From NCBI GenBank assembly GCA_002010305.1, contig MTND01000022.1:110128-174127 (forward strand): a stretch of 64,000 nucleotides of DNA, given 5' to 3'. Below, one piece after another: positions 1 through 55,843 of the stretch (its first letter is position 1; every line of letters starts with the position of its first letter). The notes under the pieces are model-generated. The model was not told the origin of the DNA and did no database searches. It was given only the letters and a program-made list of their open reading frames with translations. A program made the translations under genes and the position numbers. This DNA is from Archaeoglobi archaeon JdFR-42. GTDB lineage: Archaea > Halobacteriota > Archaeoglobi > Archaeoglobales > JdFR-42.

Positions 1-150
1 GAGGATGGTGGCATGCCATCTGGCAAGGTCTATCTGCATGTTTATGAATTGTTTGGTCTCATCATCACCAAAAATAATACTCATGGATAAGAACGACATG
101 CCCAGGAGAGAAACTCCGAGCGACAAATAAAGTGGTTCAGAACCACTCAT
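1..150 (-). CDS. partial CDS (first 50 codons; continues beyond window start), hydrophobic small-protein fragment
   Basis: Reverse strand has ATG at 150..148 and reads MSGSEPLYLSLGVSLLGMSFLSMSIIFGDDETKQF..., open to position 1. Absent from ORF track because no stop lies in the window. Confidence 0.3.
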   Translation of the reverse strand, partial: MSGSEPLYLSLGVSLLGMSFLSMSIIFGDDETKQFINMQIDLARWHATIL

Positions 151-307
151 TGCAAAAGATTTAAATGGACCTCATCATATAAAAAATTAGAGGGATTTTG
201 ACTTAGATATCCGTTAATTATCTTTCACAATATTACTGGAAACTTCAAAAGAATACCTTTAAACTACTATCTCAGCAACTTCAGTTCTTATATCTCCAAT
301 ATCTGCT

Positions 308-466
308 TCAATTTGAGTTTTCTATATCCATGTAGTCCTCTATCGCCTCTCTGATGTTTTCAAGGGCCTCTTCCCTGGTCTCTCCCTGGGAAACACAGCC
401 AGGGAAAGAGAACATAGACTACATACCACCTTTTTAGGCCTCTTTGAAGACGATCTTGAACCTCAC
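308..466 (-). pseudogene. HicB-like (UPF0150) antitoxin remnant with two in-frame stops
   Basis: Reverse frame reads (GTG)RFKIVFKEA*KGGM*SMFSFPGCVSQGETREEALENIREAIEDYMDIENSN*. The PGC-SQGET-EEAL-NI-EAI pattern is typical of HicB. TAA and TAG interrupt the N-terminal third. Confidence 0.45.
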
Positions 467-774
467 GGTTGCTTATTGGTTAAAGAAGTTGAAAAAGGTC
501 TCTACACTTGAGAAGATATTCTTGACTTTCCAAAAGATCTTTGATATTGAGATCGACACCCATGATTAAATCTATCCAAACACCAGAATGCTCTTTTCGA
601 AGGAAAAAACTCATCCAAGAAGTAATCCACTACATTGGTTGTAATACTCTTACAAGAAATGGTTTATGGACCTCCACTTTTCCATATCTACCTTTTGCAC
701 CACATTATTTAGTCTCTCAGAAGAACTATTTATGGAGTCTAACTTTGTCCCCATGCCTTTAACTCGGTTATTCA

Positions 775-847
775 TGCCGGGGGCGGGGTTCGAACCCGCG
801 GCCTTCAGATTATGAGTCTGACGCCCCACCAGCTAGGCCACCCCGGC
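775..847 (-). tRNA. tRNA-Met (anticodon CAT; elongator type, or tRNA-Ile2 if modified)
   Basis: Reverse complement is GCCGGGGTGGCCTAGCTGGTGGGGCGTCAGACTCATAATCTGAAGGCCGCGGGTTCGAACCCCGCCCCCGGCA. It has a cloverleaf with a 7-bp all-GC acceptor stem, a GTTCGAA T-loop and a CTCATAA anticodon loop. No CCA is encoded. Confidence 0.9.
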
Positions 848-1234
848 TCTCTCCAATGGAGGTAGGTCTCAAGCAGGTATATGTATTTTTCGGTAAAGCC
901 GTTCAGGACTTTTTTTAAGGCAATAATCTCTAATTCATGTCTGTTTCAGTGAAATCTATCGATATATGTCCAGTCAGCAATGTTTCATGACATATGACCG
1001 TTTAAAAGGGTTGAAGGGGATTAGGATTCTCAGTTATACTAGTTTAAATACTCAATGATACAAGACTTCCAGAAAGTCCATTATATTGTGGAAAAAATAC
1101 TTTGAAGGGTTTTTCACGTAATTGGATTCCTGTAGCATATTTGTTTGTATAATAAATCGAAAATAAGATAAAACAACTAAATGTACAAAAATTTATATAT
1201 TTGAAAGTATAACATAAAGTAATAGCCTGAATGA

Positions 1235-1621
1235 GTGGTGTTGGAGATGAGAGATAGACCAATAAGGATGTTTGATGAGCGGGATGAGGAACTGGTAGAG
1301 TTGCTCACAAAAACAGGTTTGAATCGTAATCTTGCGAAAGTAATCGTGTATCTTTCTAGTGTGGATGAAGCAGTTTCTCGAGAAATAGAAATGGCTGCTA
1401 ATCTCAGACAGCCAGAAGTCAGTCTCGCTATGAATGAATTAAGGCAGAAAAACTGGATTGAAGAGAAAGAGATCAAAAAGAAGGGGAAAGGCAGACCCCT
1501 CAAAAGTTATAGGTTACTAGTTGATCTAAGGGATATAGTAGAAGATCTAATAAAGAAGAAAAGAGAAGAGCTTGAGCAGATGAAAAAAGATCTTGACAGA
1601 CTTGAAGAACTTACCTCCTAA
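1235..1621 (+). CDS. winged-helix (ArsR/TrmB-like) transcriptional regulator with C-terminal coiled coil
   Basis: 128 aa. The segment LVELLTKTGLNRNLAKVIVYLSSVDEAVSREIEMAANLRQPEVSLAMNELRQKNWI looks like an HTH plus wing. The true start may be the ATG at 1247. Confidence 0.65.
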   Translation: MVLEMRDRPIRMFDERDEELVELLTKTGLNRNLAKVIVYLSSVDEAVSREIEMAANLRQPEVSLAMNELRQKNWIEEKEIKKKGKGRPLKSYRLLVDLRDIVEDLIKKKREELEQMKKDLDRLEELTS

Positions 1622-2395
1622 TCTGACTCCACAATAATTAATAATACTCATAAGAAAATTTATCAATGTTAGGGATATAAATATAGGATCCGAGTAGCTT
1701 TACCAGCGTATTTGTTATTGTTTGTATATGCTATGATAAAAATGGATGCACCGTCATCAATAATTTTGAATTTATAAATCATAGATTTTACAATGAAAAA
1801 GGTAAGAACTGAAAAAATCAAGTTGATTGGTGAACGATTGAATTATTAATCGACCAAGAAGAAAAAGTTCAGTACAAACCTTTAAGTAAAGGTAGCACTT
1901 AGAATTGTATGGTAAGTGTGCAAAGGTCCATCAAACATATTTTTTGAAAATAATAGTGAGAGAAGCTGGTGGTGTCATCAATTTCCGGATGGATGAACTT
2001 CAATTTGATCATGGAATACTCATATAAGAAAGGGGGTGTACGGGTGCGTGATATGGTGTGAGCTCCGGTTGAGAAGGGCCAAAGAATGGGAATGCAACTC
2101 TACTCTATGCCAAAATTGGCTTGGGAATGGTGGAATTTGTATGGGCAATTTCCCTTCTTCAACTACAACTATGGTTAGTATTGGATGAGGAGGAATGAAT
2201 AAAACATTCATGAAAGTTCCATTAACACTTGAAAGGCTAAATTATTCCCTCAATAAAAACAAAAATCGACGATATTTATAGCTTTGTAAGATTTTTACTT
2301 ATTCTTTAGTCTCTTTGGATTGCAATCTCTCCCCATGTTAAAAACAATGAACTAAAAAATAAAAGGGGGACAGGAATGTCACCCACGGTTATTAG

Positions 2396-2507
2396 TCCCG
2401 CCTCCCGGATTTGAACCGGGGACAACGCGGTTTCCACGCGGTATTCTTGCCTCTTGGCAAGTCTCACACTACAGCCGCGCGCTCTGGCCAGTCTGAGCTA
2501 AGGCGGG
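2396..2507 (-). tRNA. tRNA-Tyr (anticodon GTA) with a 37-nt intron at the canonical 37/38 position
   Basis: Reverse complement is CCCGCCT-TA-GCTC-AGACTGGCCA-GAGC-G-CGCGG-CTGTAG[37-nt intron]A-CCGCG-TTGTC-CCCGG-TTCAAAT-CCGGG-AGGCGGG-A. The mature tRNA is 75 nt with a C1:G72 pair and A73, typical of archaeal tRNA-Tyr. Confidence 0.85.
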
Positions 2508-2595
2508 ATAACAGTATAGAGTTAAAGCATTGGCTTAAAATTTTTTCGGTCGAATTTATCATGATTGCCAAGTCTCCATCGGACCATTGCAAGGG

Positions 2596-3150
2596 TTACT
2601 TAAATACCCTGTCAAAGAATGGATTTTTACCACTCGAAGCAATGGGTATGCCAAAGACGACATCACTCACTGTATATCCCAGCTTTCTCGCTGCCGTACC
2701 AATCCTGTACATCACTCTGTTATCTGCGTTCAAAATCCCGGCAGTTTTAACAGCAGAACCTATTGCTATCCCAAGATCCACCAGCTTAAAGGCACATGAA
2801 GGTCCTAGATAGTCTTTACCCCCCTGTCTCTCTCTCTTTTTAAATCCTTCGCAGGTAACGAATCCACATGCCCCACAGTTAAGTCCAAGGCTTTTCCCTC
2901 CTTTTACTCCAACCAAGATGACACAACTGGCTTTTTCAACTCCAATTGCATCTCTAATGAAGTTTCTCTCCTTCTCTTTAGACATGTCCTTCATTTTTTT
3001 TGCCAGCTTATCTTTCTCTTCTCCCGTTATCACAACTATCTCAATATCGTCTATCCCAGCACTTTTTGGGGCAGTTCTGGCAGAAAGGGCCATTAAATGA
3101 GCAACTATTTCCATAATGTTATCTCTAATCTCTTCCTCTTTTTTTAACAT
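2596..3150 (-). CDS. DUF2148-type ferredoxin-domain protein
   Basis: 184 aa with Cys cluster GLNCGACGFVTCEG plus GPSCAFK. Lies 5 nt downstream of the DGGGP synthase gene. Confidence 0.55.
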   Translation of the reverse strand: MLKKEEEIRDNIMEIVAHLMALSARTAPKSAGIDDIEIVVITGEEKDKLAKKMKDMSKEKERNFIRDAIGVEKASCVILVGVKGGKSLGLNCGACGFVTCEGFKKRERQGGKDYLGPSCAFKLVDLGIAIGSAVKTAGILNADNRVMYRIGTAARKLGYTVSDVVFGIPIASSGKNPFFDRVFK

Positions 3151-3155
3151 TTATA

Positions 3156-4031
3156 TCACCTTATTATAATTCCAGCAAGAAAGGCCATAAGACCCATGAA
3201 TAGACCTGTTAAGCTTACTTTTCTTAGATTTTTAATACTGTAATCCCTTTTTCTCCAGAGTGACACTGTCACATACATAAGTATGACATCGGTTATAAAA
3301 ACTAAGCCAAGATACACTAGGTTTCCATGGTAGGCCGATTCTGGATGTAAGTAGGGTATTGGAGAAAAAGCGACAGATATACCAAACAGAATTCCTGCGA
3401 TAATGCCTGCTTTTCTCTCACCCAATTCCCTAGCAATAGATCTCACATTTCTCAGTGCATCACCATGGACGTCTTCGATACCCTTCATAATCTCTCTTCC
3501 CAGACCAGCAGAAAAAGCGATAATGGAAAGCATAGCAATGTCCCAAGTAATCCATCTGGTTGCAACAACGCTCCCGTAAATGAATGGGGCTGCCATGGTA
3601 AAAGCTATGTAAGAGTTTCCACCCAGTCCAGTCTCCTTTATTTTAACATCATATAGGACACCCATTACTGTTATGATAAGAGCAAGAACAAAGGACGGAA
3701 AGTTCACAAGGGCTGCTGTAATCAGACCGAGGGGTATCATGATAAGTGATGCCCTCATGGCATCCTGTTTAGTCAGGTCCCCCCTCACAAGGGGCCTATC
3801 TCTTCGTTTGTTTGCTTTATCCACTTCAAAATCGTAGTAGTCATTGAGAGCAAAGGTACCCGCCTGAAGAAACAGGGCCGTGAGAAATCCGAAAATTATA
3901 CTGTTTATTTCGACATTAAGCCCCACAGCGATAAAGGCACCTATCCATACACCGACTCCATACATAAATCCATGTTCAAGTCTGAAAAGCTGCCATAATG
4001 CCTGTAATTTCTTCAACGTAAGTCCTCTCAT
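3156..4031 (-). CDS. UbiA-family prenyltransferase, probable digeranylgeranylglyceryl phosphate (DGGGP) synthase
   Basis: 291 aa and polytopic. Has the motif NDYYDFEVDKANKRRDRPLVRG. Adjacent to GGGP synthase. Confidence 0.8.
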   Translation of the reverse strand: MRGLTLKKLQALWQLFRLEHGFMYGVGVWIGAFIAVGLNVEINSIIFGFLTALFLQAGTFALNDYYDFEVDKANKRRDRPLVRGDLTKQDAMRASLIMIPLGLITAALVNFPSFVLALIITVMGVLYDVKIKETGLGGNSYIAFTMAAPFIYGSVVATRWITWDIAMLSIIAFSAGLGREIMKGIEDVHGDALRNVRSIARELGERKAGIIAGILFGISVAFSPIPYLHPESAYHGNLVYLGLVFITDVILMYVTVSLWRKRDYSIKNLRKVSLTGLFMGLMAFLAGIIIR

Positions 4032-4085
4032 ATTCTTCTCCTATCAGCTTTCCGGGCAGAATGTTAATGGTTGTTGTGTCATAGG

Positions 4086-4790
4086 TTATAGTATGGTCTC
4101 TACGAATTTATCCAGTCCTTTCTCATACACAACATTTCCTACAACGATGGCATCTGCATATCTACTCATTTCCAGTGCTCTTTTCCTCTCGGTTATTCCA
4201 CCACCGTAAATCAACATGGCTCTAGACAGCCTAGATTTAACCTCTCTGACCAGTTCAGGATTTCCATAAGTCCCGCTGTACTCTATGTATATTATGGGAA
4301 AAGAGAACAGCATTTCAGCAGCAACTGCGTATGAAGCAACCTCTTTAGGAGTCAATTCAGTCCTCGCTTTCGTAACTTCTCCCACAGCTGAGGCTGGGTT
4401 TAGCACGATATATGCTTCCATGACAACTTTCTCTAAAAGATCTGAAAATCCCTCAATTGCCTCATAGTGGCTGTAAACCCATTGAGCATGTTTTCCAATT
4501 ACCCATTCTACATCTGTGGCATTGATAACAGATGGAACGAATATAAAATCTACTTCAGTAACTACACCAGATGGGTCTGAGGGTTCAAGGACTACAGGGA
4601 TGTCATAATCCTTTACCATCTCAATGAGCTCCATAGCTTTATCCGCTGTCACATTCTGAGTTCCAGATATCATGATGGCATCGGTTCCTGAATCAACTAT
4701 TTTTGCCACAAGTTCCGGACTATTTGGTCTGTCAGGATCGAGTTTAGTGATATGTCTCCAGTTTCTCCATTTCATAGTTATCCCATCCAT
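4086..4790 (-). CDS. geranylgeranylglyceryl phosphate (GGGP) synthase, PcrB family
   Basis: 234 aa. Contains [11 protein letters not shown], a C-terminal IYGGGI region and a TIM-barrel-like pattern. Confidence 0.85.
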
Positions 4791-5464
4791 CCAAAGATCG
4801 CTGAAACTATAAATAATGCATAATAAACTTCATAATTTCCAGCTCCTCCAATGCTGATTACTGGACTGCCATATTCCTCTTTCGCGCTCCCCAGCATAGT
4901 TACATGGGCCAAAAAAATTCCCAATACTCCTGAAGAGAAAATAAGCGATGCAGAATATGGGTGATTTATTACCAGCCCAACAATCAGTGGTGTGAGGAAT
5001 ACGTAGGAAGGAGTGGTTATGCCAACTCCACCCTCAAAATCAGATGCAAGATACACAATCACCCATGTGATCAGAATGATTACTAGATGCTCCACCCAGA
5101 GCTTGGATGACAGCAGCATGATAGAAACAATCAACATTACAAGGATAGATAGATTCAGGGAAATGGCTGAGTGAAACAATCTAGGATTACCGGAGAGCAT
5201 ATTTTCCTTCAAGGAAACTTTGTACCGTTTTTCAAGGATATGCACAGCATCTTTGCTGAAGGGGGGTTTTCTCGTCCTCATATGGTATAGAGGTATGTCC
5301 ACTAGGCTACCGGCCCATATTATCACTCCAATTAAGGCAAGAAACATCCCTGTTATTGATCCAAAACTGATTCTGGAAAAGGCAGCCACATATACCACAG
5401 GAAAAATAAGCAACCCCTTCAGTACAAGATCCCAAGGTTCATATAAATTGATGGGGCCTCTCAT
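4778..5464 (-). CDS. polytopic membrane protein of unknown function
   Basis: 228 aa with about 6 hydrophobic segments. Its 3' end overlaps the GGGP synthase start by 13 nt. Confidence 0.5.
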
Positions 5465-7128: not shown

Positions 7129-8097
7129 TCAGTCTGACACCCCACGTTTAAGTCTCCTTCTAGCAGGTTCGATTAACTCGTTTATATATTTTGCTGCATT
7201 TATTTTCAGATCCATGGGATGAATTTTTCCTAAGTGGTAATCCTCTTCTAAAAGAGAATAGGAATCATATACGACATCCCCTCCGAATTTATCGTCTCGT
7301 TCAAGGGTGATATGTTCATATCGTGGAAATATATGGTATCGAAACATCTGCAATACAGGGTTATTTTCGATCTCACCTAGAGGACAGAATGCTCTCTTTA
7401 TTTTTTTATTAACATCTCCCTCAGAATCATCTACTGAAATAAAATTACCCTTAGAGGAAGACATTTTTTCTCCATCAAGCCCCAGAAGGATGGGGGTATG
7501 TAGACATACAGGAGCTTTGTACCCAATTCGAGGTAGGTTCTCTCTGGCGAGCATATGTATTTTTCGCTGGTCTATTCCTCCCACTGCCAGATCCACACCA
7601 AGATATGCAATGTCCATAGCCTGCATTAAAGGATACACCATCTGAGAAATAAGGGGATCTGTTTTTCTACGACTTACTTCATCCATACTCCGCTTTGCTC
7701 TGTTCAGTGTAGTAAGTCGGGCCAATTTCAACAGATTGATAACGTAATCTCTCTCAAACTGGTAGGTAGAACCGAGAACAAACCTAGCTTTTCTCTCATC
7801 CAGGCCGAGAGCTATGAAGACCTCTCTGTTCATTTCTGCCACCTTTTCAATCTCCTCGAAGCTACCCTTCTCGTTGAGGTAAGCATGAACGTCTGCTAAT
7901 AGGATTATCACTTTAAATCCGACTTCCTGAAGATCTATAAGTTTGTTCACAGTCAACAGATGGCCGAGATGAATCTTTCCACTTGGCTCATATCCTACAT
8001 AAGTGGTGGTCTCTCTCTTTTCCAGCAAATCCTTGAGTTCGTGTTCGGTAATTATCTCTTCGGTATTCCGGAGTACTCTCTGGATTTTATCCCTCAT
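7129..8097 (-). CDS. tyrS: tyrosyl-tRNA synthetase (archaeal type)
   Basis: 322 aa with an HLGH (HIGH) motif and KMSSSKGN (KMSKS). Confidence 0.95.
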
Positions 8098-8328
8098 TCT
8101 CTCTCTCCTGTAGAAATTTATTTAAGTTCCCAACAGAGCAATAACAACATATAATTTTCGGGTCATCAGGTATATCTGCTTCTGATGTATTGGATATACA
8201 TCTATAAAATTTTCTGGAAAAATCTGACTAATCTTATTTACTTTTTATCTATGATGTGAAATAAACCCCCTTACCCTCTTTGAGTAGTGACAAACATCTT
8301 TTTAAACCATCATGTTTTACCTTCATGT

Positions 8329-9672
8329 ATGCCAGTCCATCCCATTGAATTCAGGTACGGAACCCAGGAAATGAAGTCCATCTGGGATGAGGAGAACAAG
8401 ATCCGCTTAATGATTCGGGTTGAACTTGCTCTCCTGAAATCCCTGGCCAAGCATGGATTTGTCTCCAGTAAGGAGGTTGAAGAGCTGGAAAAAAAATGTG
8501 AGACCGTAAAAGTAGATAGAATAAAGGAAATTGAGGCTGAAATTAAACATGACATAATGGCTCTTGTGAAAGCTATGTCAGAGGTGGCTGAAGGAGATGC
8601 AGGAAAATGGATTCATTTTGGTGCAACCTCTAACGATATAATTGATACTGCTACAGCTCTTCAATTAAGAGATAGTCTCACTTTGATTAAAGAGAAACTG
8701 GTTGAACTTTTGAGAGAACTGGTTAAAAAAGCTAAAGAACACATAGATACTATTTGTCTGGGAAGAACTCATGGACAAGCAGCTATTCCAACAACCTACG
8801 GTTTCAGATTTGCGGTATGGGCATCTGAAATTATGAGACATCTTGAACGTCTGAGTGAAGTGGAAAAACGAGTTGTCGTAGGCCAGATAACGGGAGCGGT
8901 AGGAACTCAGGCAGCATATGGTGATATGGGCGAATCCATTGAGGCCGAAGCTATGCAATATCTAGAGATAAAGAGTGTGGATATTGCCACCCAGATCATC
9001 CCCCGGGATTTGTATGGAGAATATGTGATGTTTCTTGCTGGAATAGCGACAACACTGGAAAAATTTGCTACTACAATTAGGGTATTGCAGAGGACTGAAG
9101 TTGGAGAATTGGAAGAAGAATTTGGAGAAAAACAAGTCGGATCCTCTACCATGCCTCATAAGAGAAATCCAATAACCGCTGAACAGATATGTGGGATTGC
9201 AAGAGTGGTAAGAGGGTTTATTGGACCAGCTTTAGAGAGCACTATTCTCTGGGAAGAAAGAGATTTAAGTAACTCTTCAGCAGAAAGAATAATCCTGCCA
9301 GAAGTGAGTGTTCTTGTAGATCACATACTGACACAAACAATTCGAGTTATCCAAAAACTGACAGTTAATGAGAAACGAGTGCGTGAAAATATGGAGCGGC
9401 TTAAAGGATTAAACATGGCAGAAAGTGTTATGATAGCGTTAACAAAAAAAGGCGCCTCAAGACAAGAAGCTCATGAAATAGTACGAAAAGCGTCCATGAG
9501 AGCATATGGGGAAGATAAAGGCCTGATTGAGGTTTTATTGGAAGACGAAGCTGTGATGAGGTATTTTAGAAAAGAAGACCTTAAGCGTATATTGTTGCCA
9601 GAGAACTACCTTGGGACTGCAAAAATGAGAGTTGAAACCATTCTGGAAAAGGCTGAAAAGTGGCTCAAATGA
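8329..9672 (+). CDS. purB: adenylosuccinate lyase
   Basis: Motifs GATSNDIIDTA and SSTMPHKRNP. The likely start is MPVHPIEFRYG at 8329, in frame with track start 8287. Confidence 0.9.
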   Translation: MPVHPIEFRYGTQEMKSIWDEENKIRLMIRVELALLKSLAKHGFVSSKEVEELEKKCETVKVDRIKEIEAEIKHDIMALVKAMSEVAEGDAGKWIHFGATSNDIIDTATALQLRDSLTLIKEKLVELLRELVKKAKEHIDTICLGRTHGQAAIPTTYGFRFAVWASEIMRHLERLSEVEKRVVVGQITGAVGTQAAYGDMGESIEAEAMQYLEIKSVDIATQIIPRDLYGEYVMFLAGIATTLEKFATTIRVLQRTEVGELEEEFGEKQVGSSTMPHKRNPITAEQICGIARVVRGFIGPALESTILWEERDLSNSSAERIILPEVSVLVDHILTQTIRVIQKLTVNEKRVRENMERLKGLNMAESVMIALTKKGASRQEAHEIVRKASMRAYGEDKGLIEVLLEDEAVMRYFRKEDLKRILLPENYLGTAKMRVETILEKAEKWLK

Positions 9673-22207: not shown

Positions 22208-22262
22208 ATAGCTGATGCATTCCTGCCTATTTCTGATCAGTTATAAATAATTTTTGTAATAT

Positions 22263-22308
22263 TGTAAAGCTATGCTTTGCAAATTGTCAATGTAAATCCA
22301 CGATATTG
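22263..22308 (+). repeat. bipartite palindromic element, copy A (right arm of hairpin 2 decayed)
   Basis: TGTAAAGC-TAT-GCTTTGCA-AA-TTGTCAAT-GTAA-ATccacgata. Lies between the ferredoxin gene (-) and the 73-aa ORF (+). Confidence 0.7.
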
Positions 22309-22382
22309 TTATATTATATAGGATTTATAATTATAAATCCAATGCCAAGGTTAATATGAATATAGCTAATAGATATTAAATC

Positions 22383-25140: not shown

Positions 25141-25188
25141 AGAAGATTGAATAATTGATCACAGGTAATAGATTTTCATAGAAAATAC

Positions 25189-25231
25189 TGTAAGGCTATG
25201 CATTACAACTTGTCAATGTAAATTGACAATA
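25189..25231 (+). repeat. bipartite palindromic element, copy B (best preserved)
   Basis: TGTAAGGC-TAT-GCATTACA-AC-TTGTCAAT-GTAA-ATTGACAA-TA. Upstream of the radical SAM Ahb/NirJ-like gene. Confidence 0.75.
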
Positions 25232-25294
25232 ATGCAAAAAAAGGGATATATAGGATAGAGGAAATTGCTTAATAATATATAAGTGGTGTGGTGT

Positions 25295-29842: not shown

Positions 29843-29885
29843 TGCAAGTATATAACTTACAATTTGTCAACAGGAGTTGACAATA
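29843..29885 (+). repeat. bipartite palindromic element, copy C (abuts the tfe start codon)
   Basis: TGCAAGT-ATATA-ACTTACA-AT-TTGTCAAC-AGGA-GTTGACAA-TA followed directly by ATG. Confidence 0.75.
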
Positions 29886-30401
29886 ATGCAATTGGCAGAA
29901 CCGGAAGAACTGATCTTGGAAGAATTTATCAAGAGAGTTGCAGGTGAAGAAGGACTGATCATATTTCATAATGCTCTCTCGAGAGAATTCACCGATGAAG
30001 AAATATCCATCAAAACAGGGCTAGATCTCAACTCAGCTCGGAGAGCCCTATTTGCCCTTTATGAATCAGGACTTGCCGAATATAGAAGAGAGAAAGACGA
30101 GGATAGTGGATGGCTTACCTACTATTGGAAAATCATTCCTGAGAAAGGAAAAGCTGTCTTGAAAAGAGAACTGGAAAAAGCAAAAAGAAATTTTAAGCTT
30201 AAGATCGAATTTGAAAGCAGTAATATGTTCTATTACTGTAAAAATGGCTGTGGCAAGATTTTATTTGAAGACGCCATGTCCTTCAATTTTGTCTGCCCAA
30301 ACTGTGGCTCTTCTTTGGATTTTGTAGATAACACAAAACTCTTGGAATTCCTTGAAGAAGAAATACAGAAAATAGACAATATGTTAAAATCATTGATGTA
30401 A
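29886..30401 (+). CDS. tfe: transcription factor E (TFE alpha)
   Basis: Winged helix plus zinc ribbon CKNGCG...CPNCGS. The ATG at 29886 is preferred over the track TTG at 29877. Confidence 0.85.
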   Translation: MQLAEPEELILEEFIKRVAGEEGLIIFHNALSREFTDEEISIKTGLDLNSARRALFALYESGLAEYRREKDEDSGWLTYYWKIIPEKGKAVLKRELEKAKRNFKLKIEFESSNMFYYCKNGCGKILFEDAMSFNFVCPNCGSSLDFVDNTKLLEFLEEEIQKIDNMLKSLM

Positions 30402-37909: not shown

Positions 37910-39331
37910 TCATATAGTCTTGTTAAGGGCCTCTGGTACTTTCAGAACTTTTATTGTATTAGTTGTTCCTGGGACTCCAAAGGGAAAACCGGAGATTATT
38001 ATGATATCCCCATCTTCCCTAATAATTCCTTTTCTAAGGCCCTCTTTTACTATATCAGCAACCACACTCTCAAAATTTCTATCAGCAGGTATGGATATCA
38101 GAGGTATGCATCCCCAGACAAGAGAAAATTTTCTCAGAGTGATTTCATCATGAGCTGCAATAAGAATTGGAACTGGAGGTCTATATCGAGATATCTGGAA
38201 AGCAGATGTACCGGTGCGAGTAAAAGAGATGATGGCATCTATATCCAACTCCATGGATAGAATAGCGGCTGAATATGCTATGGATTCGGTTGTGTCTTCA
38301 GGAGTATATTGTTCGAGGTACGGGAATATATTCTCTGCCTGTCTTATTGTCCTGTCCATCATCCTAACGGCTTCGACAGGATACTTACCCATAGCTGTCT
38401 CTTCTGAAAGCATCACAGCATCAGTACCATCCAGAACAGCGTTGGCTATATCAGTCACCTCTGCTCTCGTGGGATGTGGTTGAACCACCATGGATTTCAT
38501 CATCTGAGTTGCAGTAATTACGGGTTTTCCCATTTTGTTTGCCATTTTTATGGCTCTTTTTTGCACTATTGGAATATCTTCAAGAGGTATTTCTACACCC
38601 AAATCCCCTCTGGCCACCATGATACCGTCAGCAACTTTTAAAATCTCTTTCAGATTATCGACAGCCTCACTTTTCTCTATTTTGGCTATAACTGGAGCCT
38701 TCCTGGCATATTCTTCCATGATATCTTTTAACTCTTTTACATCTTTTCCAGATCTCACAAATGACATTGCTACCCAATCAACGCCTTTTTCAAGGCCAAA
38801 TTTCAAATCTTTTTTATCTTTCTCTGTTATCGGGTCAATTTCGAAAGGAATATTCGGGAGATTCACTCCTTTATAGGAAGAAAGAACACCTCCTTCAAGA
38901 ACTTCTGTTGTCACTTCTCCATCATCTGTTTCAATTACTCTCAATTTTATTGAACCATCAGCCAGATATATTACGTCTCCTTCAGTTAAATACTCTAAAA
39001 CATGTGGATGACTTATAGAGATTCTCCTTTTATCACTCTTTTTTTGGCCTGTAAGTAAAATCACATCTCCTTGATGGAGAGTTACAGGGTTTGGGAGTTT
39101 ACCTATCCGAATTTTTGGACCTGCCAGATCTTGAAGTATGGCTACTACCTTCTCCAGGTTTCTGGATATTGTTTTAACCTTTTTGATCAATGTACCATGA
39201 TATACCTCTTTCCCGTAAGAGAAATTAAGCCGAGCAACATCTATTCCGGCTATTATAAGTTTTTTTATCATTTCAGGCGATTCAGTAGCAGGTCCAAGAG
39301 TGCAAACAATTTTTGTTTTTCTCATTATCAT
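37910..39331 (-). CDS. pyk: pyruvate kinase
   Basis: 473 aa. Contains TKIVCTLGPA, MVARGDLGVEIP and MLSEETA. Confidence 0.9.
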   Translation of the reverse strand: MIMRKTKIVCTLGPATESPEMIKKLIIAGIDVARLNFSYGKEVYHGTLIKKVKTISRNLEKVVAILQDLAGPKIRIGKLPNPVTLHQGDVILLTGQKKSDKRRISISHPHVLEYLTEGDVIYLADGSIKLRVIETDDGEVTTEVLEGGVLSSYKGVNLPNIPFEIDPITEKDKKDLKFGLEKGVDWVAMSFVRSGKDVKELKDIMEEYARKAPVIAKIEKSEAVDNLKEILKVADGIMVARGDLGVEIPLEDIPIVQKRAIKMANKMGKPVITATQMMKSMVVQPHPTRAEVTDIANAVLDGTDAVMLSEETAMGKYPVEAVRMMDRTIRQAENIFPYLEQYTPEDTTESIAYSAAILSMELDIDAIISFTRTGTSAFQISRYRPPVPILIAAHDEITLRKFSLVWGCIPLISIPADRNFESVVADIVKEGLRKGIIREDGDIIIISGFPFGVPGTTNTIKVLKVPEALNKTI

Positions 39332-39480
39332 TTTATTCTTCTGTTCTTAGTATTTTATATATTTGTGTTTAGACCATGGGGTTTATACCTTTATGATTAG
39401 AAAATACGAAATATTATGTGTTTATGGGGAAAAATACAGCAGGAATGGAATCTTCAGATTTTCTAAACCGTCTAAAGAAA

Positions 39481-39522
39481 CTGTTATTGTACGCTAACAG
39501 ACTGTAAATCGGGGATTTACAA
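39481..39522 (-). repeat. bipartite palindromic element, diverged copy E
   Basis: The + strand reads CTGTTA-TTGTACGC-TAACAG-A-CTGTAAATC-GGGG-ATTTACAA. Lies between pyk (-) and the actin-fold gene (+), next to a TTTTAAATAT TATA-like box. Confidence 0.5.
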
Positions 39523-39557
39523 AACTTTTAAATATCGAGTGGTGGTATCTAAACCAG

Positions 39558-40628
39558 GTGTTTTTGATGACGGAGGGGGAAGAATTGAAAAATAAGCAGA
39601 ATGATGCTAAAAAAGATACAGGTGTTGTTCCCATAGGAATTAAACTGGGTTCTCAGCGAACTGTGGTTGTTACAGGAGATAATACTCACGTTATCCAGAC
39701 ATGTGTTAAAGAAAGTGAGAATCCGATTACTGGTGAAAAGGAATATGTGGTTGGGAATGAAGCTCTAGAGCTGTATGGCGATGAGGCCATCTACATGTTG
39801 AGAGGAGGATTGCCCGGAAATGATGAGGAAGCAGACCTTCTTAGAGTCTTCTTGGGCCATATTATAGAAGAATATGGTCTTACTGAAAACAGTTATGTTA
39901 CATATGCCGTCCCCTCTACAGAAAATGAAGCGGGAATAGATCTAATTAAAAAAGTTATAAGTCAGGTTCCTGTGGGTTGGGCTGGTAAAGAAATATGGAA
40001 TGACTCCTTCCTTGGTGCCTCAGCGTTTCCTGAGGGCATTGATATGATTGAAAAAACGTTTCTAGTGATCAATCTCGGATCAAGTACTACAGAACTGGTG
40101 GCGGTGAGAAAAGGTGAGATAATTCTAAATATGGTTACAGGAACTGTTTGCGGCGATCTTGTGGATAGATGGATCAAAAACGAAATCCAGAACGAAACTC
40201 GAGGAGCAGTAAACGTTGATCTGACTACCGCCAGAATGTACAAGGAGACGTACGCTAATCTAAAGAAATGGGAAAACGTTCAGGAGTCTGTCCATCTTTT
40301 TGAACGAGGGAAGTTCAGTTTTAGAATTGACGAATGTATTATACGACCAATAATCAGATATCTAGATAGACTTGTTGACTTTATGTGTCTGGAGTTCTTA
40401 CCAGAACTTGCGGAAAGCCACTTCTCTGTGTATAAGCAGGTTCTGAACAGGGAATTTATACTTGTAGGTGGAATGGCCGAAATTGAGGGTTTGAAAGAGC
40501 GTCTTGCAACAAAACTGGCTGAAGCTCTTGGTACAGGAATTTCAATTAAATGTCCTGAGAACCCAAGTACTGCTTCAGCACGTGGAGCATATCTAATTTC
40601 CAAATACAGGATTGAAAATAAACAGTAA
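39558..40628 (+). CDS. divergent actin/MreB/Hsp70-fold protein with degenerate phosphate-binding motifs
   Basis: 356 aa. Phosphate-1-like IGIKLGSQRTVV, phosphate-2-like LVINLGSSTTELV and adenosine-like ILVGGMAEIEGL. The usual Asp residues are replaced by Lys and Asn. An alternative ATG lies at 39567. Confidence 0.55.
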   Translation: MFLMTEGEELKNKQNDAKKDTGVVPIGIKLGSQRTVVVTGDNTHVIQTCVKESENPITGEKEYVVGNEALELYGDEAIYMLRGGLPGNDEEADLLRVFLGHIIEEYGLTENSYVTYAVPSTENEAGIDLIKKVISQVPVGWAGKEIWNDSFLGASAFPEGIDMIEKTFLVINLGSSTTELVAVRKGEIILNMVTGTVCGDLVDRWIKNEIQNETRGAVNVDLTTARMYKETYANLKKWENVQESVHLFERGKFSFRIDECIIRPIIRYLDRLVDFMCLEFLPELAESHFSVYKQVLNREFILVGGMAEIEGLKERLATKLAEALGTGISIKCPENPSTASARGAYLISKYRIENKQ

Positions 40629-40644
40629 AAAGCGGTGAGATGGG

Positions 40645-41190
40645 ATGGTGACTGACATTGAGGCTAAATTGGCAAGATGGGATGAATTATTTGAAGATTT
40701 AAATAAAATTGTTCAAGAGATCATTCCTACTATTGAGAAGACCAGAGAGGAGCTGGATAAAAGGATAACCGAAATTGAGAAGAGGTATATTCTAATAAAA
40801 AAGGATTTGGACGAACTACAAAAGAAATTCAGTGGAGTGGAAACGAAAGCTTATGAAAGTACTGAAAAGATAAAAGCCAAAGTAGAAAAAGAAACACTCC
40901 AGAAGATCGATATTGAAGCTATTAAAAAAGAACTGAATGAGGAAATAAAAAAACTACGGGATGAAGTAGATAAAGTCAGAAAAGTAGGAACCACTCTAAG
41001 GCCAGATGTCACAGAAGAGATCAGAGAAATCAAATCCATTTTATCAAACCTCAAAGAAGAAGTTAAGAAAAATAAAGAATCCATCGATAAACTCTCAGAG
41101 GACATGGAAAGTTTCATTGTGTTTTTTGAAAAGAGAGGTGTTGAAACCATCAGGAAAAAAATTGAGTTCAAGTCTCCCCGGATATTATGA
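40645..41190 (+). CDS. coiled-coil protein
   Basis: 181 aa, K/E-rich heptad-like sequence throughout. Starts 16 nt after the actin-fold gene. Confidence 0.55.
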   Translation: MVTDIEAKLARWDELFEDLNKIVQEIIPTIEKTREELDKRITEIEKRYILIKKDLDELQKKFSGVETKAYESTEKIKAKVEKETLQKIDIEAIKKELNEEIKKLRDEVDKVRKVGTTLRPDVTEEIREIKSILSNLKEEVKKNKESIDKLSEDMESFIVFFEKRGVETIRKKIEFKSPRIL

Positions 41191-41260
41191 GCTGTAAATT
41201 TACAGGCTGATACTCCACCGGTAAAGAGCATATGAACTTTCCACAACAAAAGTGGTGAAA

Positions 41261-42079
41261 ATGAAACAGCAGTTATCAGAGCTTTCTAATAAATTAAAGC
41301 GCATTATAGATAAATATCATCTTCTGAAAAAGGGTGGTGGAGAGGTTATATGCATACTTTCTGGTAAGGGTGGGGTGGGGAAGACAACTCTGGTTATCAA
41401 CATCGGTTCCAGTCTAGCGTTGAAAAATAAAAAAGTTCTTTTAATTGATCTGAACTTTGCCCTTCCAACCCTACATCTGTTTCTTGGGGAAAAGACAGAG
41501 GTTACTATGACCCATTATCTCGCCGGAATTTCTGATTTGGAGAATATCGTTCCTGGAAAGATTAAATTGAAATCAGGTGAAGAGGTATCTGTTATTCCTT
41601 CTGAATCTCTTGTTAACCTTGGTGAGAGAATAGACGTGGAGAGGCTCGGTGCAGCCATTAACCATTTCAGACTGTATTTTGACTATATATTTCTGGATGT
41701 GGGCCCCGGTATGAGCAAGTATTCCTTATATCCCATAACGGTATCCGATAGAGTGTTCATAGTGTCTGTTGATGAGTGGCCAGCTTACAAAGATGCTATG
41801 AGTGTTAAAAAAATGATCAAGTCTATGGGTTCTGATGATGATGGATTTATATTAAATATGGTAAAAACTACCAATCCATCGAAGCTAAAGCATAGGTGGG
41901 GCGATTCTATTTTTGGAGTTATCCCCTATGATAAACATCTCAAACTGGCTTTTCAGAATGGGGAACCAATTTTTAACTACAAATTGAGTTTTCTGTCTAA
42001 AGGGAAAAAGTATATTGACAGGATAGCAGAAAAAATAATTTTTACGTACTCTATTACGGAATATGATTTTAGATTGTAG
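41261..42079 (+). CDS. MinD/ParA-family P-loop ATPase
   Basis: Deviant Walker A SGKGGVGKTT and Walker B IFLDVGPG. The ATG at 41261 is preceded by GGTGA. Confidence 0.8.
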   Translation: MKQQLSELSNKLKRIIDKYHLLKKGGGEVICILSGKGGVGKTTLVINIGSSLALKNKKVLLIDLNFALPTLHLFLGEKTEVTMTHYLAGISDLENIVPGKIKLKSGEEVSVIPSESLVNLGERIDVERLGAAINHFRLYFDYIFLDVGPGMSKYSLYPITVSDRVFIVSVDEWPAYKDAMSVKKMIKSMGSDDDGFILNMVKTTNPSKLKHRWGDSIFGVIPYDKHLKLAFQNGEPIFNYKLSFLSKGKKYIDRIAEKIIFTYSITEYDFRL

Positions 42080-42738
42080 TGAGAGAAGAGTTATTTTGTA
42101 GATTTGAAAGTTTTAATTTTTGTGTGCAGGAAATATAATACTCCTTTTAAGAGTTCTTCTTTTGAAAGAACAGAAAAATCCATATCACTGATCCATCCAT
42201 CTACCATGCTTTCAGAGCATATACAGGAATTGAAGTTCTTGAAGAGACGGTTGTTGAATCCACCGTTGTTGCCCATCTATCAAGGGTTTGTGATGTTTAC
42301 TTCTGGAAAAACGCATCAGAAGTTGATGCCATATGCAATATTGATGGAAAACAGATCGGGTTTGGGGTTAAATGGGGTGTTAGGTCATGGAGACGGCCAA
42401 AACATCTTGACAGAGAGTTTCTGCTTGATAAAAGTAAAATTCCAACTTTTCTGGCCTCAGTAGCATGGTAACCCGATGTAACAAACAATGAAAAATTTAA
42501 TTCCCTGTGGTATATGGGATGGTTATCACGAATGTGGGTTTTACAGGATTTTCACATTCTTATGTCATTATAGAGCTTTCAACACAATCACATTCTGCAG
42601 AATGCTACAGTAACAAAAGTAAATCTAACTTAAAGTAAAAGCTCTATCCTCCATGAAAAGGAGCCAGAAATGAAACCAGTAAAAATATTTTAATATCTTG
42701 GTGACCATCCATTCTGTGTTTCATGGGGGACTCTGAAA

Positions 42739-43635
42739 ATGAGTGATAAATTTAAACTTGAATTAACAAAACTGAAGGCCAGACTTGTTTTCCCGAAGGG
42801 ATTTCAACTGCCATACTGGCTGGGAAACAAATTCAGAGGGGGTTTTGGTTCTGTTTTAAGAAAAGCGATATGTGGGTACCTCAACCCTGACTGCCTGGAC
42901 TGTAGACAGAGAAATGACTGTTTGTATTACGATATGTACGAGAAAGAGAAGCAAAAACGAGGGTACGGGAAACCTGTGAGACCTATTATATTCATTCCTC
43001 CATTTTTTGGAAAATCCCTCACAGTTGAGAAGGATGGTTTTCTAAACCTAGACATTCTTATGTTTGGATACTATGACAGATACCTGCCCCATCTCATTTA
43101 TGGCCTTCGCTTTCTGGGGAAACTCGGGCTGAATAAGTTCTCGAAATACTATATTGAGGTAGTGGAGTGTGTGGGTAAAAAGGTATATGATGGCGAAACG
43201 ATAATAGTTGAGAATCTGAGAAAAATCAATCTGGGGAATGTGGATTATACCAAATACAGGGGTGTAAAAAAACTAAAGATACTTTTCAGGACACCCATAG
43301 ACCTAGAAAAAGAAGAGATCTCTCTGGAATTTCTATTGAAAATGATTCGGAAAAGGCTCATTCTCTTCACTAACGAATATGGGGCGGGTAAAATCCCGGA
43401 CTTCCTATGTGAAAGCAGGACATTGACCCAAAAACTCAATTCTCACAAATTGCCCCATATCTCTAAAAGGCATGGAAAACGGACTTTCAGAGGGTACACC
43501 GGGTATTTTGAGGCGGAAGTTGAACACATGGATGATTTTGCCGTTAACTTACTGGCCATAGGCGAAGAAATAGGTGCAGGCTCAAAGTCCAGTTATGGTA
43601 TGGGATTTTTCAGGGTTGAATCAGAGAATGGTTAA
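42739..43635 (+). CDS. Cas6-like RAMP protein (DUF2276/Cas6 C-terminal type) with N-terminal 4-Cys cluster; orphan
   Basis: 298 aa. C-terminal glycine-rich loop GAGSKSSYGMGFF, N-terminal FRGGFGSVLRKAICGYLNPDCLDCRQRNDCLYYDMY. No CRISPR array or cas genes in the window. Confidence 0.55.
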   Translation: MSDKFKLELTKLKARLVFPKGFQLPYWLGNKFRGGFGSVLRKAICGYLNPDCLDCRQRNDCLYYDMYEKEKQKRGYGKPVRPIIFIPPFFGKSLTVEKDGFLNLDILMFGYYDRYLPHLIYGLRFLGKLGLNKFSKYYIEVVECVGKKVYDGETIIVENLRKINLGNVDYTKYRGVKKLKILFRTPIDLEKEEISLEFLLKMIRKRLILFTNEYGAGKIPDFLCESRTLTQKLNSHKLPHISKRHGKRTFRGYTGYFEAEVEHMDDFAVNLLAIGEEIGAGSKSSYGMGFFRVESENG

Positions 43636-55801: not shown

Positions 55802-55843
55802 ATTGTCAGCAAAAACTGACAATTTGTAAAACATAGTTTTACA
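55802..55843 (-). repeat. bipartite palindromic element, copy D
   Basis: The + strand reads ATTGTCAG-CAAAAA-CTGACAA-TT-TGTAAAAC-ATA-GTTTTACA. Lies in the 650-bp gap between the Rieske/cyt b operon and the tetraheme-FeS-NrfD operon. Confidence 0.75.

Follow-up and report, generated by a model that had tools for sequence, protein, structure and literature searches.

A salactin operon of the Archaeoglobi with a coiled-coil adaptor and a MinD-like ATPase, a candidate positioning module

We describe a group of three genes in Archaeoglobi archaeon JdFR-42, located within a stretch of 64,000 nucleotides (nt) of contig MTND01000022.1 (hereafter the window; all its coordinates are positions within these 64,000 nt). 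The first gene encodes an actin homologue of the Salactin family, the second a coiled-coil protein with conserved ends, which we call the adaptor, and the third a MinD/FlhG-type ATPase. Comparison of 22 distinct Archaeoglobi-type loci, 21 of them with downstream DNA and 19 judged long enough to hold a third gene, indicates that the constant core is salactin plus the coiled coil with its PRIL tail, and that the MinD-like ATPase is the usual but replaceable third member. We propose, with about as much confidence as doubt, that the Archaeoglobi salactin system gathers filament, adaptor and anchor or regulator in one operon and acts as a positioning module. The module is well supported by family, fold, gene order, motifs, charge and the replaceability of gene 3, and its mechanism is what we infer from them.

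The three genes and their products

The open reading frames (ORFs) lie on the + strand at 39558-40628 (356 amino acids, aa; GTG start), 40645-41190 (181 aa) and 41252-42079 (275 aa; GTG start), exactly as in the original prediction, made from the sequence alone, of three same-strand genes separated by 16 and about 70 nt. Our preferred starts are the ATG at 39567 for gene 1, which gives 353 aa, and the ATG at 41261 for gene 3, which gives 272 aa; the choice rests on the gene calls of a public metagenome contig with identical DNA and on a GGTG Shine-Dalgarno-like site before both ATGs. The spacers are then 16 nt between genes 1 and 2 and 70 nt between genes 2 and 3, the latter being 61 nt if the GTG at 41252 is used.

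Gene 1 matches the Pfam family Salactin (PF25229) with an E-value of 2.9e-94 and 316.3 bits, against a gathering threshold of 27.1, and the match spans protein residues 24-349 and model positions 2-332 out of 335. Other Pfam scores are 36 bits for MreB_Mbl and 24.9 bits for Actin, which is below the cut-off of 27. The NCBIfam salactin equivalog (NF053533) gives 384.3 bits, under its cut-off of 400 and followed by the MamK model, a near miss that fits a diverged, non-haloarchaeal orthologue. An AlphaFold2 (AF2) model built with 16 homologues has a predicted local distance difference test score (pLDDT) of 87.1 and a predicted template modeling score (pTM) of 0.84; when it was compared with the PDB by Foldseek, Mbl, MamK and MreB came on top, with TM-scores of about 0.65-0.79 (normalized by query and by target length), and then actin, Arp and Hsp70. 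A profile search of the PDB sequences likewise placed MamK first (1.3e-11), with MreB at 5e-5. All these analyses confirm the actin fold that had been predicted, and both the profiles and Foldseek group the protein with Salactin, MamK and MreB rather than with a sugar-kinase or Hsp70 family. The homologues at 61-70% identity come from Geoglobus, Archaeoglobus, Ferroglobus and other Archaeoglobaceae. A query of the GTDB genomes with the single sequence found no close relatives, and an alignment was needed as the query.

In the salactin alignment, the invariant columns of the phosphate-1 motif are G24, K26, G28, S29, T32 and V33. K26 and N169 are invariant across the Archaeoglobi and haloarchaeal salactins and are aligned to two Asp residues of MamK: G-I-K-L-G-S pairs with G-I-D-L-G-T (in lGIDLGTSHT), and I-N-L-G-S with V-D-I-G-A. 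The salactin motifs G-[IV]-K-x-G-S (phosphate 1) and N-x-G-S (phosphate 2) stand for the D-x-G motifs. Since the changes from Asp to Lys and from Asp to Asn are invariant in the whole family, the motifs that look degenerate are features of the Salactin family, to which the sequence comparisons assign gene 1, and do not mark an orphan degenerate actin. The description of this protein as a degenerate actin is therefore correct in its cytomotive-type fold, but the protein is a member of a known family with family-wide substitutions.

The Salactin family was characterized in 2023 in Halobacterium salinarum by Zheng et al. in mBio (PMC10746226). The H. salinarum protein hydrolyzes ATP and polymerizes with ATP or AMP-PNP; dynamic instability and ATP-dependent polymerization have been demonstrated solely for this orthologue (PMC10746226). 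Its filaments start at polar foci, and it was tied to DNA partitioning at low ploidy, while its anchor and its “kinetochore-like” partner were left open (PMC10746226). The same study already listed Archaeoglobi and Methanophagales among the taxa with homologues, found synteny to be poor and did not name any partner (PMC10746226).

The product of gene 2 had been predicted to be a protein of 181 aa consisting entirely of coiled coil, and its AF2 model is indeed all helical (helices 2-114 and 121-175), with the last five residues disordered, at low to moderate confidence (pLDDT 72.6, pTM 0.31). Searches of Pfam, NCBIfam, PADLOC and the PDB gave generic coiled-coil matches only and no curated family. 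We also considered FlaC_arch as the identity of the adaptors and rejected it, the matches, found in 6 of 14, being level with other coiled-coil noise. Alignment of 14 orthologues shows conservation at both ends of the protein. In the N-terminal region, L9, W12, L15, F16, L19 and P28 are invariant and E6, D13 and E17 nearly invariant; in the tail, S-P-R-[IL]-L, residues S177, P178, R179 and L181 are invariant. The middle is variable in sequence, and whole adaptors are 149 to 275 aa long. Among 1.84 billion representative proteins, searched exhaustively with the profile, there were about 11 true relatives, each of them with whichever conserved terminus or termini its sequence retains, and the rest was generic coiled coil; a word-indexed search with the coiled-coil alignment was swamped by generic coiled coils, with 5 matches among those listed. 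An ending of the form PR[ILVMF][ILVMF] occurs in 23 of the 4899 ORFs of all loci, and 22 of these 23 are the gene immediately after salactin. Judged from its sequence and predicted helices, the adaptor is a coiled coil of two helices, and its family is very small.

Gene 3 carries the deviant Walker A motif SGKGGVGKTT that had been noted before, at residues 37-46 of the 275-aa ORF. Residues S34, G35, K36, G37, G38, V39, G40, K41 and T42 are invariant in the ATPase alignment, as are the switch/Walker B aspartate positions D63, N65, D146 and others. The protein matches AAA_31, CbiA and ParA in Pfam and stays below the cut-offs of the MinD models, with 101.6 bits for the archaeal MinD TIGR01969 (cut-off 201.75) and 80 bits for the bacterial model (cut-off 212.9). 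Its nearest relatives in the PDB are the MinD proteins of Aquifex, Pyrococcus and Archaeoglobus (best 3.6e-18), and then FlhG. Its orthologues are 42-48% identical with at least 225 bits, and the next tier consists of generic MinD/FlhG proteins with at most 88 bits, at most 38% identity and shorter alignments. The orthologues share an N-terminal helix extension of about 25 residues and the motifs PSGKGGVGKT and DLNFALPNLH; at the C-terminus there is nothing beyond the last core helix, and their last 14 residues have hydrophobic moments between 0.45 and 2.15. The drop in identity and the shared features indicate that the gene 3 ATPase is a dedicated subfamily of its own. In 78 loci with generic MinD genes from other taxa, salactin was never a neighbour. 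A genome scan with the ATPase alignment, in which the generic P-loop pattern dominates, found at least two trio loci among the matches listed. Archaeal MinD homologues position polar machinery and influence the tubulin-like CetZ1 (PMC11588486).

In five loci from DPANN metagenome-assembled genomes (MAGs), assigned to Aenigmatarchaeota and other archaea (L164, L167, L175, L176 and L191), a generic MinD-like gene is followed by a gene for a very long coiled-coil protein, with no actin-like gene nearby. These loci may represent another recurring pairing of MinD and coiled coil.

Conservation of the trio and its variable third slot

The gene for the PRIL-tailed coiled coil directly follows salactin in all 21 Archaeoglobi-type loci for which downstream DNA is available. 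Next comes the MinD-like gene, in 17 of the 19 loci that we judged long enough to hold it, its start usually lying 4-20 nt after the adaptor stop codon, and metagenome contigs show the identical gene order again. The neighbourhood search thus finds the three genes together in many genomes, and chance is excluded because the order is conserved in about 20 other genomes. The flanking genes vary among the loci, from pyruvate kinase and Cas6 in JdFR-42 to PhoU and T2SSF, DUF7490 and FGGY, and others, which argues against inheritance alone as the explanation of the synteny.

The exceptions concern the third gene. The ANME-1 genome G37ANME1 (locus L012) has in this place a membrane GT2 glycosyltransferase of 507 aa (7700-9223 of that locus), an arrangement that recurs in contigs from five metagenome samples. 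The lineage of L015, L020 and L256 has a membrane protein of 239 aa with a weak DUF5658 match (L256, 2088-2807); this lineage, on short contigs, was left out of the 19-locus count. L023 keeps the adaptor and has no third gene. The salactin of L025, a MAG, shows only 39% identity; the gene that follows it codes for about 475-499 aa, with a coiled coil at the start, T-P-R-I-L at the end and little else in common with the adaptor, and the third gene of this locus (2948-3724) gives a weak winged helix-turn-helix match and has a C-terminal transmembrane helix. No further lineage like L025 was found in the metagenome scan. Wherever another gene takes the place of the ATPase gene, its product is therefore a membrane protein: the GT2 enzyme, the DUF5658-like protein, or the winged-helix protein with its transmembrane helix. 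The PRIL ending is kept in L012, L023, L256 and L025, all of which are without the ATPase, so the C-terminal motif tracks salactin and not the ATPase. L015 and L020 are labelled as Woesearchaeota and Desulfurobacterium, respectively, and their salactin and adaptor are 64-65% identical to those of Archaeoglobi; both short contigs are probably mis-binned Archaeoglobi.

Two kinds of neighbour recur around the trio. In seven loci of one subclade, the MinD-like gene is followed by a gene for a 733-aa protein with two T2SSF domains, a platform protein similar to TadC and ArlJ (for example, L004 7546-9747 and L017 8869-11082), with no adjoining gene for a secretion ATPase or pilin. Directly upstream of the trio, a gene for a regulator with PhoU and AbrB/MazE domains is present in seven loci (L004, within 1-4826, L014, L016, L017, L019, L021 and L022), and such a gene is also near salactin in four haloarchaeal loci; L004 has, in addition, an adjacent pstSCAB-phoU phosphate-uptake operon. 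The PhoU neighbour is notable because the sole salactin phenotype arises in low-phosphate medium.

In haloarchaea, where we sampled 101 distinct salactin loci (L027-L161), a different neighbour was found. In 69 of the 101 loci, the gene just upstream of salactin, in the same orientation, has an Arch_fla_DE (ArlD/E) domain (PF04659, 94.6 bits). It encodes a protein of 160-190 aa with the N-terminus M-x-I-N-P-R-D-Y-D-L-D-E-L-R (for example, L065 5387-5887, L067 5495-5992 and L062 5371-5868), and in Halorubrum it overlaps the salactin gene by 4 nt. The genus Halobacterium has no such neighbour, and this accounts for the poor synteny in the salactin paper, which studied relatives of Halobacterium, a genus without the common haloarchaeal neighbour, and judged synteny uninformative (PMC10746226). 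Across the haloarchaeal sample, the conserved gene pair contradicts that judgement and points to a link between salactin and a paralogue of the polar archaellum switch proteins. Profile comparison of the adaptor with the haloarchaeal ArlD/E-domain protein showed no kinship between them (probability 0.1).

A Soj-type ParA gene (NAKGGTGKTT, DPQGNAT) is divergent from the ArlD/E-salactin pair in several haloarchaeal loci (L042, L044, L046, L056, L058, L062, L069, L076, L078, L081, L082, L104-L106, L131, L149 and L156), mostly from Haloarculaceae and unclassified MAGs of Halobacteriales. Beside it, 15 loci encode a protein of 339 aa that carries a CheW domain at its C-terminus, a pairing that resembles the bacterial ParC/ParP system for positioning chemoreceptor arrays.

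The features of the JdFR-42 operon are compiled in Table 1. Its TATA-like box follows the archaeal TATA consensus, and an (A/T)TTTAAATAT box is found at an equal distance in loci L002, L008, L009, L011 and L018; we take it as the probable operon promoter. The T-rich tract after gene 3 would be an archaeal terminator that ends the operon. The spacers between genes 1, 2 and 3 contain no comparable T-run. With a TATA-like box upstream, a T-rich tract after gene 3 and no T-run in between, a single transcript for the trio is the simplest reading. A stand-alone Cas6 gene (42739-43635; PADLOC Cas6 5e-98; AF_1859_N of Pfam in the public gene call) lies 660 nt past the operon, and this gap holds no convincing gene, repeat or Rfam match.

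Table 1. Coordinates of the genes, motifs and putative signals of the salactin operon within the 64,000-nt window.
Feature	Position	Strand	Basis or remark
Palindrome TGTAAATCGGGGATTTACA (TGTAAAT-CGGGG-ATTTACA)	39503-39521	none	abuts the TATA-like box, upstream of the putative promoter
TATA-like box TTTAAATA	39527-39534	+	about 33 nt 5' of the gene 1 ATG; read from the sequence
Gene 1, salactin-family actin homologue, 353 aa	39567-40628	+	Pfam, NCBIfam, AF2, Foldseek, PDB profile search
Phosphate-1 motif P-I-G-I-K-L-G-S-Q-R-T-V	39630-39665	+	Lys in place of the usual Asp
Gene 2, coiled-coil adaptor with conserved ends, 181 aa	40645-41190	+	AF2 helices, adaptor alignment
Acidic N-terminal motif W-D-x-L-F of the adaptor	40660-40737	+	conserved columns of the adaptor alignment
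C-terminal S-P-R-I-L tail of the adaptor	41173-41187	+	conserved columns of the adaptor alignment
Second palindrome TGTAAATTTACA	41193-41204	none	within the 70-nt spacer of genes 2 and 3
Gene 3, MinD/FlhG-type deviant-Walker-A ATPase, 272 aa	41261-42079	+	Pfam, NCBIfam, PDB, drop in identity
Deviant Walker A S-G-K-G-G-V-G-K-T-T with signature lysine	41360-41389	+	invariant in the ATPase alignment
T-rich tract	42093-42125	+	after the gene 3 stop codon; read from the sequence

Proposed mechanism and competing explanations

The proteins differ in charge along what may be a chain of contacts. The median isoelectric point is 4.9 for salactin; the first 35 residues of the adaptor have a value of 4.6 and its last 25 residues 9.8, and the ATPase has 9.4, with 9.9 for its N-terminal extension. 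Together with the pattern of co-occurrence, these charges suggest that the tail of the adaptor binds salactin and that its N-terminal motif binds the ATPase. All the contacts between the proteins, as well as the surface and the cargo, are predicted in the mechanism that we propose. Gene 1 would form an ATP-driven filament similar to those of MamK and MreB, and gene 2 would act as an extended coiled-coil spacer, probably a dimer, whose two ends each bear a short conserved motif. The basic, disordered S-P-R-[IL]-L tail would dock on an acidic salactin subunit or on the filament end, and the free C-terminal peptide could capture, nucleate or cap the filaments. Such docking would resemble that of ParR on ParM, arcadin-2 on crenactin and PilN on PilM; terminal peptides are known to engage ParM, crenactin, PilM and FtsA. 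At the other end, the acidic W-D-x-L-F helix would bind the basic ATPase, possibly through its N-terminal helix extension. The ATP-bound dimer of gene 3 would sit on a surface, recruit the adaptor N-terminus and set the place and time of filament anchoring or nucleation. This surface would most likely be the membrane or the cell pole, with the nucleoid as the alternative, because the replacements of gene 3 are membrane proteins, salactin filaments grow out of polar foci and archaeal MinDs organize the pole (PMC11588486). Pushing or pulling by the filaments would then move a cargo, for which chromosomal DNA is the sole candidate, with experimental support in haloarchaea only.

A broader version of this proposal is possible, though we hold it only tentatively. 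The system would be a hybrid positioning machine, in which a dynamically unstable actin-family filament and a two-ended adaptor are combined with a ParA/MinD ATPase or a membrane protein as the anchor or nucleator at the membrane, pole or nucleoid. The pair of salactin and PRIL tail would predate the Archaeoglobi. The anchor or “kinetochore-like” partners that salactin has been missing would come from this operon, and in haloarchaea the ArlD/E neighbour would be their functional replacement.

Several observations weigh against the positioning module. At least three lineages have genes 1 and 2 but not the ATPase, which is therefore not obligatory. Conservation has so far been seen only within one order plus ANME-1 and one MAG, and inherited synteny contributes to it. 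In haloarchaea, the sole clade with experimental data, neither the adaptor nor the ATPase subfamily of gene 3 was found in any of the 101 loci, so the function of salactin there is independent of them. Within the gene 3 ATPase, neither a membrane-targeting helix nor a DNA-binding motif was demonstrated. A similarity of its N-terminal extension to the N-terminus of the ANME-1 GT2 protein amounts to 7.8 bits, which is noise, and we do not rely on it.

The absence or replacement of the ATPase in L012, L023, L256 and L025 would also be expected if salactin and the PRIL coiled coil worked alone and the ATPase were a regulator of the FleN/MinD type, concerned with type IV pili, the archaellum or the placement of chemoreceptors, that merely shares their transcript. 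FleN/MinD ATPases are general regulators of archaeal type IV pilus systems and are often encoded with unrelated proteins (PMC4858521), and a T2SSF gene follows the trio in seven loci. However, that neighbour is confined to one subclade, the ATPase subfamily has so far been seen only beside salactin and the coiled coil, in most loci 4-20 nt separate its start from the end of the adaptor gene, and the membrane proteins that replace it in the same slot suggest a shared role in the module. We consider this explanation rather unlikely, and we favour the positioning module with the ATPase as a working member.

The palindromes of the operon bear on a second explanation, namely a chromosomal partition locus of the ParMRC-like (type II) kind, with the coiled coil as a ParR-like centromere-binding protein and the palindromes as the centromere. 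The order of actin gene and adaptor gene and the C-terminal tail of the adaptor resemble parM-parR, DNA partitioning at low ploidy has been connected with salactin (PMC10746226), and the operon has two TGTAAAT/ATTTACA palindromes, the first of which is a putative lineage-specific operator. Palindromes of the form TGTAAA...TTTACA are found three times in the 64-kb window, where 0.13 are expected. Nevertheless, they are not conserved at the orthologous loci, and there are no iterated repeats beside the operon: no direct-repeat family is present in 39300-39600, and 42050-42760 has short repeats at chance level only. The adaptor gives no ribbon-helix-helix, helix-turn-helix (HTH) or other DNA-binding family match in Pfam, NCBIfam or the PDB. 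A tblastn search of 72,556 plasmids returned no match, the flanks are housekeeping genes, and the locus has no PADLOC or phage-type signal for a mobile replicon. A partition locus of this type is improbable.

The third TGTAAA...TTTACA palindrome (55825-55843) lies upstream of a gene set for cytochrome c7, an Fe-S protein and NrfD. The original prediction had placed a diverged copy of a repeat on the promoter: a palindrome is present there, but the element at 39503-39521 is in none of the families found by a repeat-family search of the window and is not conserved in orthologous operons. The family meant is probably a repeat of about 50 nt, with copies 76-82% identical at 22258-22311, 25184-25237 and 29843-29891, which fronts unrelated genes (an unassigned 264-aa ORF, a radical SAM protein and TFE-alpha) and has palindromes of its own inside. 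Scans for Rfam families, promoters and terminators, and repeats at the locus gave nothing beyond the palindromes.

A third explanation takes gene 1 as a non-polymerizing, PilM-like scaffold of a machine related to type IV filaments or the archaellum, with the coiled coil as PilN and the ATPase as TadZ/FlhG. It would account for the T2SSF gene downstream in seven loci and for the ArlD/E-domain gene upstream of salactin in most haloarchaeal loci, and it is established that PilM binds a terminal peptide of PilN. Against it, gene 1 matches Salactin, MamK and MreB, Pfam reports no PilM family for it at E-values up to 1, and its best structural matches are filament-forming actins. The operon includes no pilin or secretion ATPase gene. 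The haloarchaeal orthologue polymerizes, and its deletion leaves motility unchanged (PMC10746226). We regard a PilM-like scaffold as very doubtful. A defence system was also considered and rejected, as PADLOC gave coiled-coil noise only.

Relation to known systems

We found no description of the operon, of the adaptor family with its two motifs or of the dedicated ATPase subfamily in the searchable literature. The view that the trio is not a described archaeal system is thus upheld, as far as this literature shows, for the operon, the adaptor family and the ATPase subfamily, and is to be amended for the actin, whose Salactin family was characterized in 2023. Salactin is among the very few archaeal actins with in vivo data, and the operon yields two candidate partners whose short motifs can be mutated, so that the polar anchor and the filament target, left open in PMC10746226, become direct questions of binding and localization. 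The Archaeoglobi proteins also offer material for structural work: electron microscopy of the haloarchaeal filaments failed in 2.9 M KCl, and it should become feasible with proteins from a non-halophilic thermophile.

The features that we tested also bear out that the trio is not crenactin/arcadin, MinCDE or ParABS, and it is likewise not ParMRC. There are no MinE or MinC genes among the operon neighbours at the locus, and Pfam and NCBIfam detect no ParB-type or other HTH centromere-binding partner in the operon.

The closest known protein is H. salinarum salactin. Gene 1 is 35-38% identical to the haloarchaeal members, has a MamK-like fold and shares the Lys and Asn substitutions with them, but the Archaeoglobi protein is non-halophilic and has two operon partners that haloarchaea lack. 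ParMRC and Alp7AR also combine a gene for an actin-like NTPase with a following gene for an adaptor whose terminal peptide could engage the filament, and haloarchaeal salactin shows a similar dynamic instability; the Archaeoglobi locus differs in being chromosomal, in having a coiled-coil adaptor without a DNA-binding fold and no centromere iterons, and in the addition of a MinD-like ATPase. MamK is the nearest solved relative of gene 1 by sequence (E 1e-11) and fold, and it too works through an adaptor, MamJ, that joins the filament to its cargo. In contrast with MamK-MamJ, however, the present locus is archaeal and has no magnetosome genes, and its adaptor is unrelated to MamJ. The crenactin-arcadin system of Thermoproteales similarly consists of an archaeal actin with small helical partners, of which arcadin-2 binds the actin by a C-terminal peptide; gene 1 belongs to another actin clade, the salactin/MamK branch, and no homology between the partners is detectable. 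We know of no ParA/MinD ATPase in the arcadin cluster.

On the side of the ATPase, PomXYZ, bactofilin-PadC-ParA, TipN-ParA and the archaeal MinD2 and MinD4 systems share with the operon a deviant-Walker-A ATPase and a coiled coil or scaffold with a short contact motif. Gene 3 differs from them as a separate subfamily that scores below the archaeal MinD cut-off, with no MinC, MinE or ParB present, and none of these systems joins the ATPase to an actin-family filament. Positioning systems of the actin type and of the ParA type are normally alternatives, and it would be novel for one operon to unite them in a dedicated pair.

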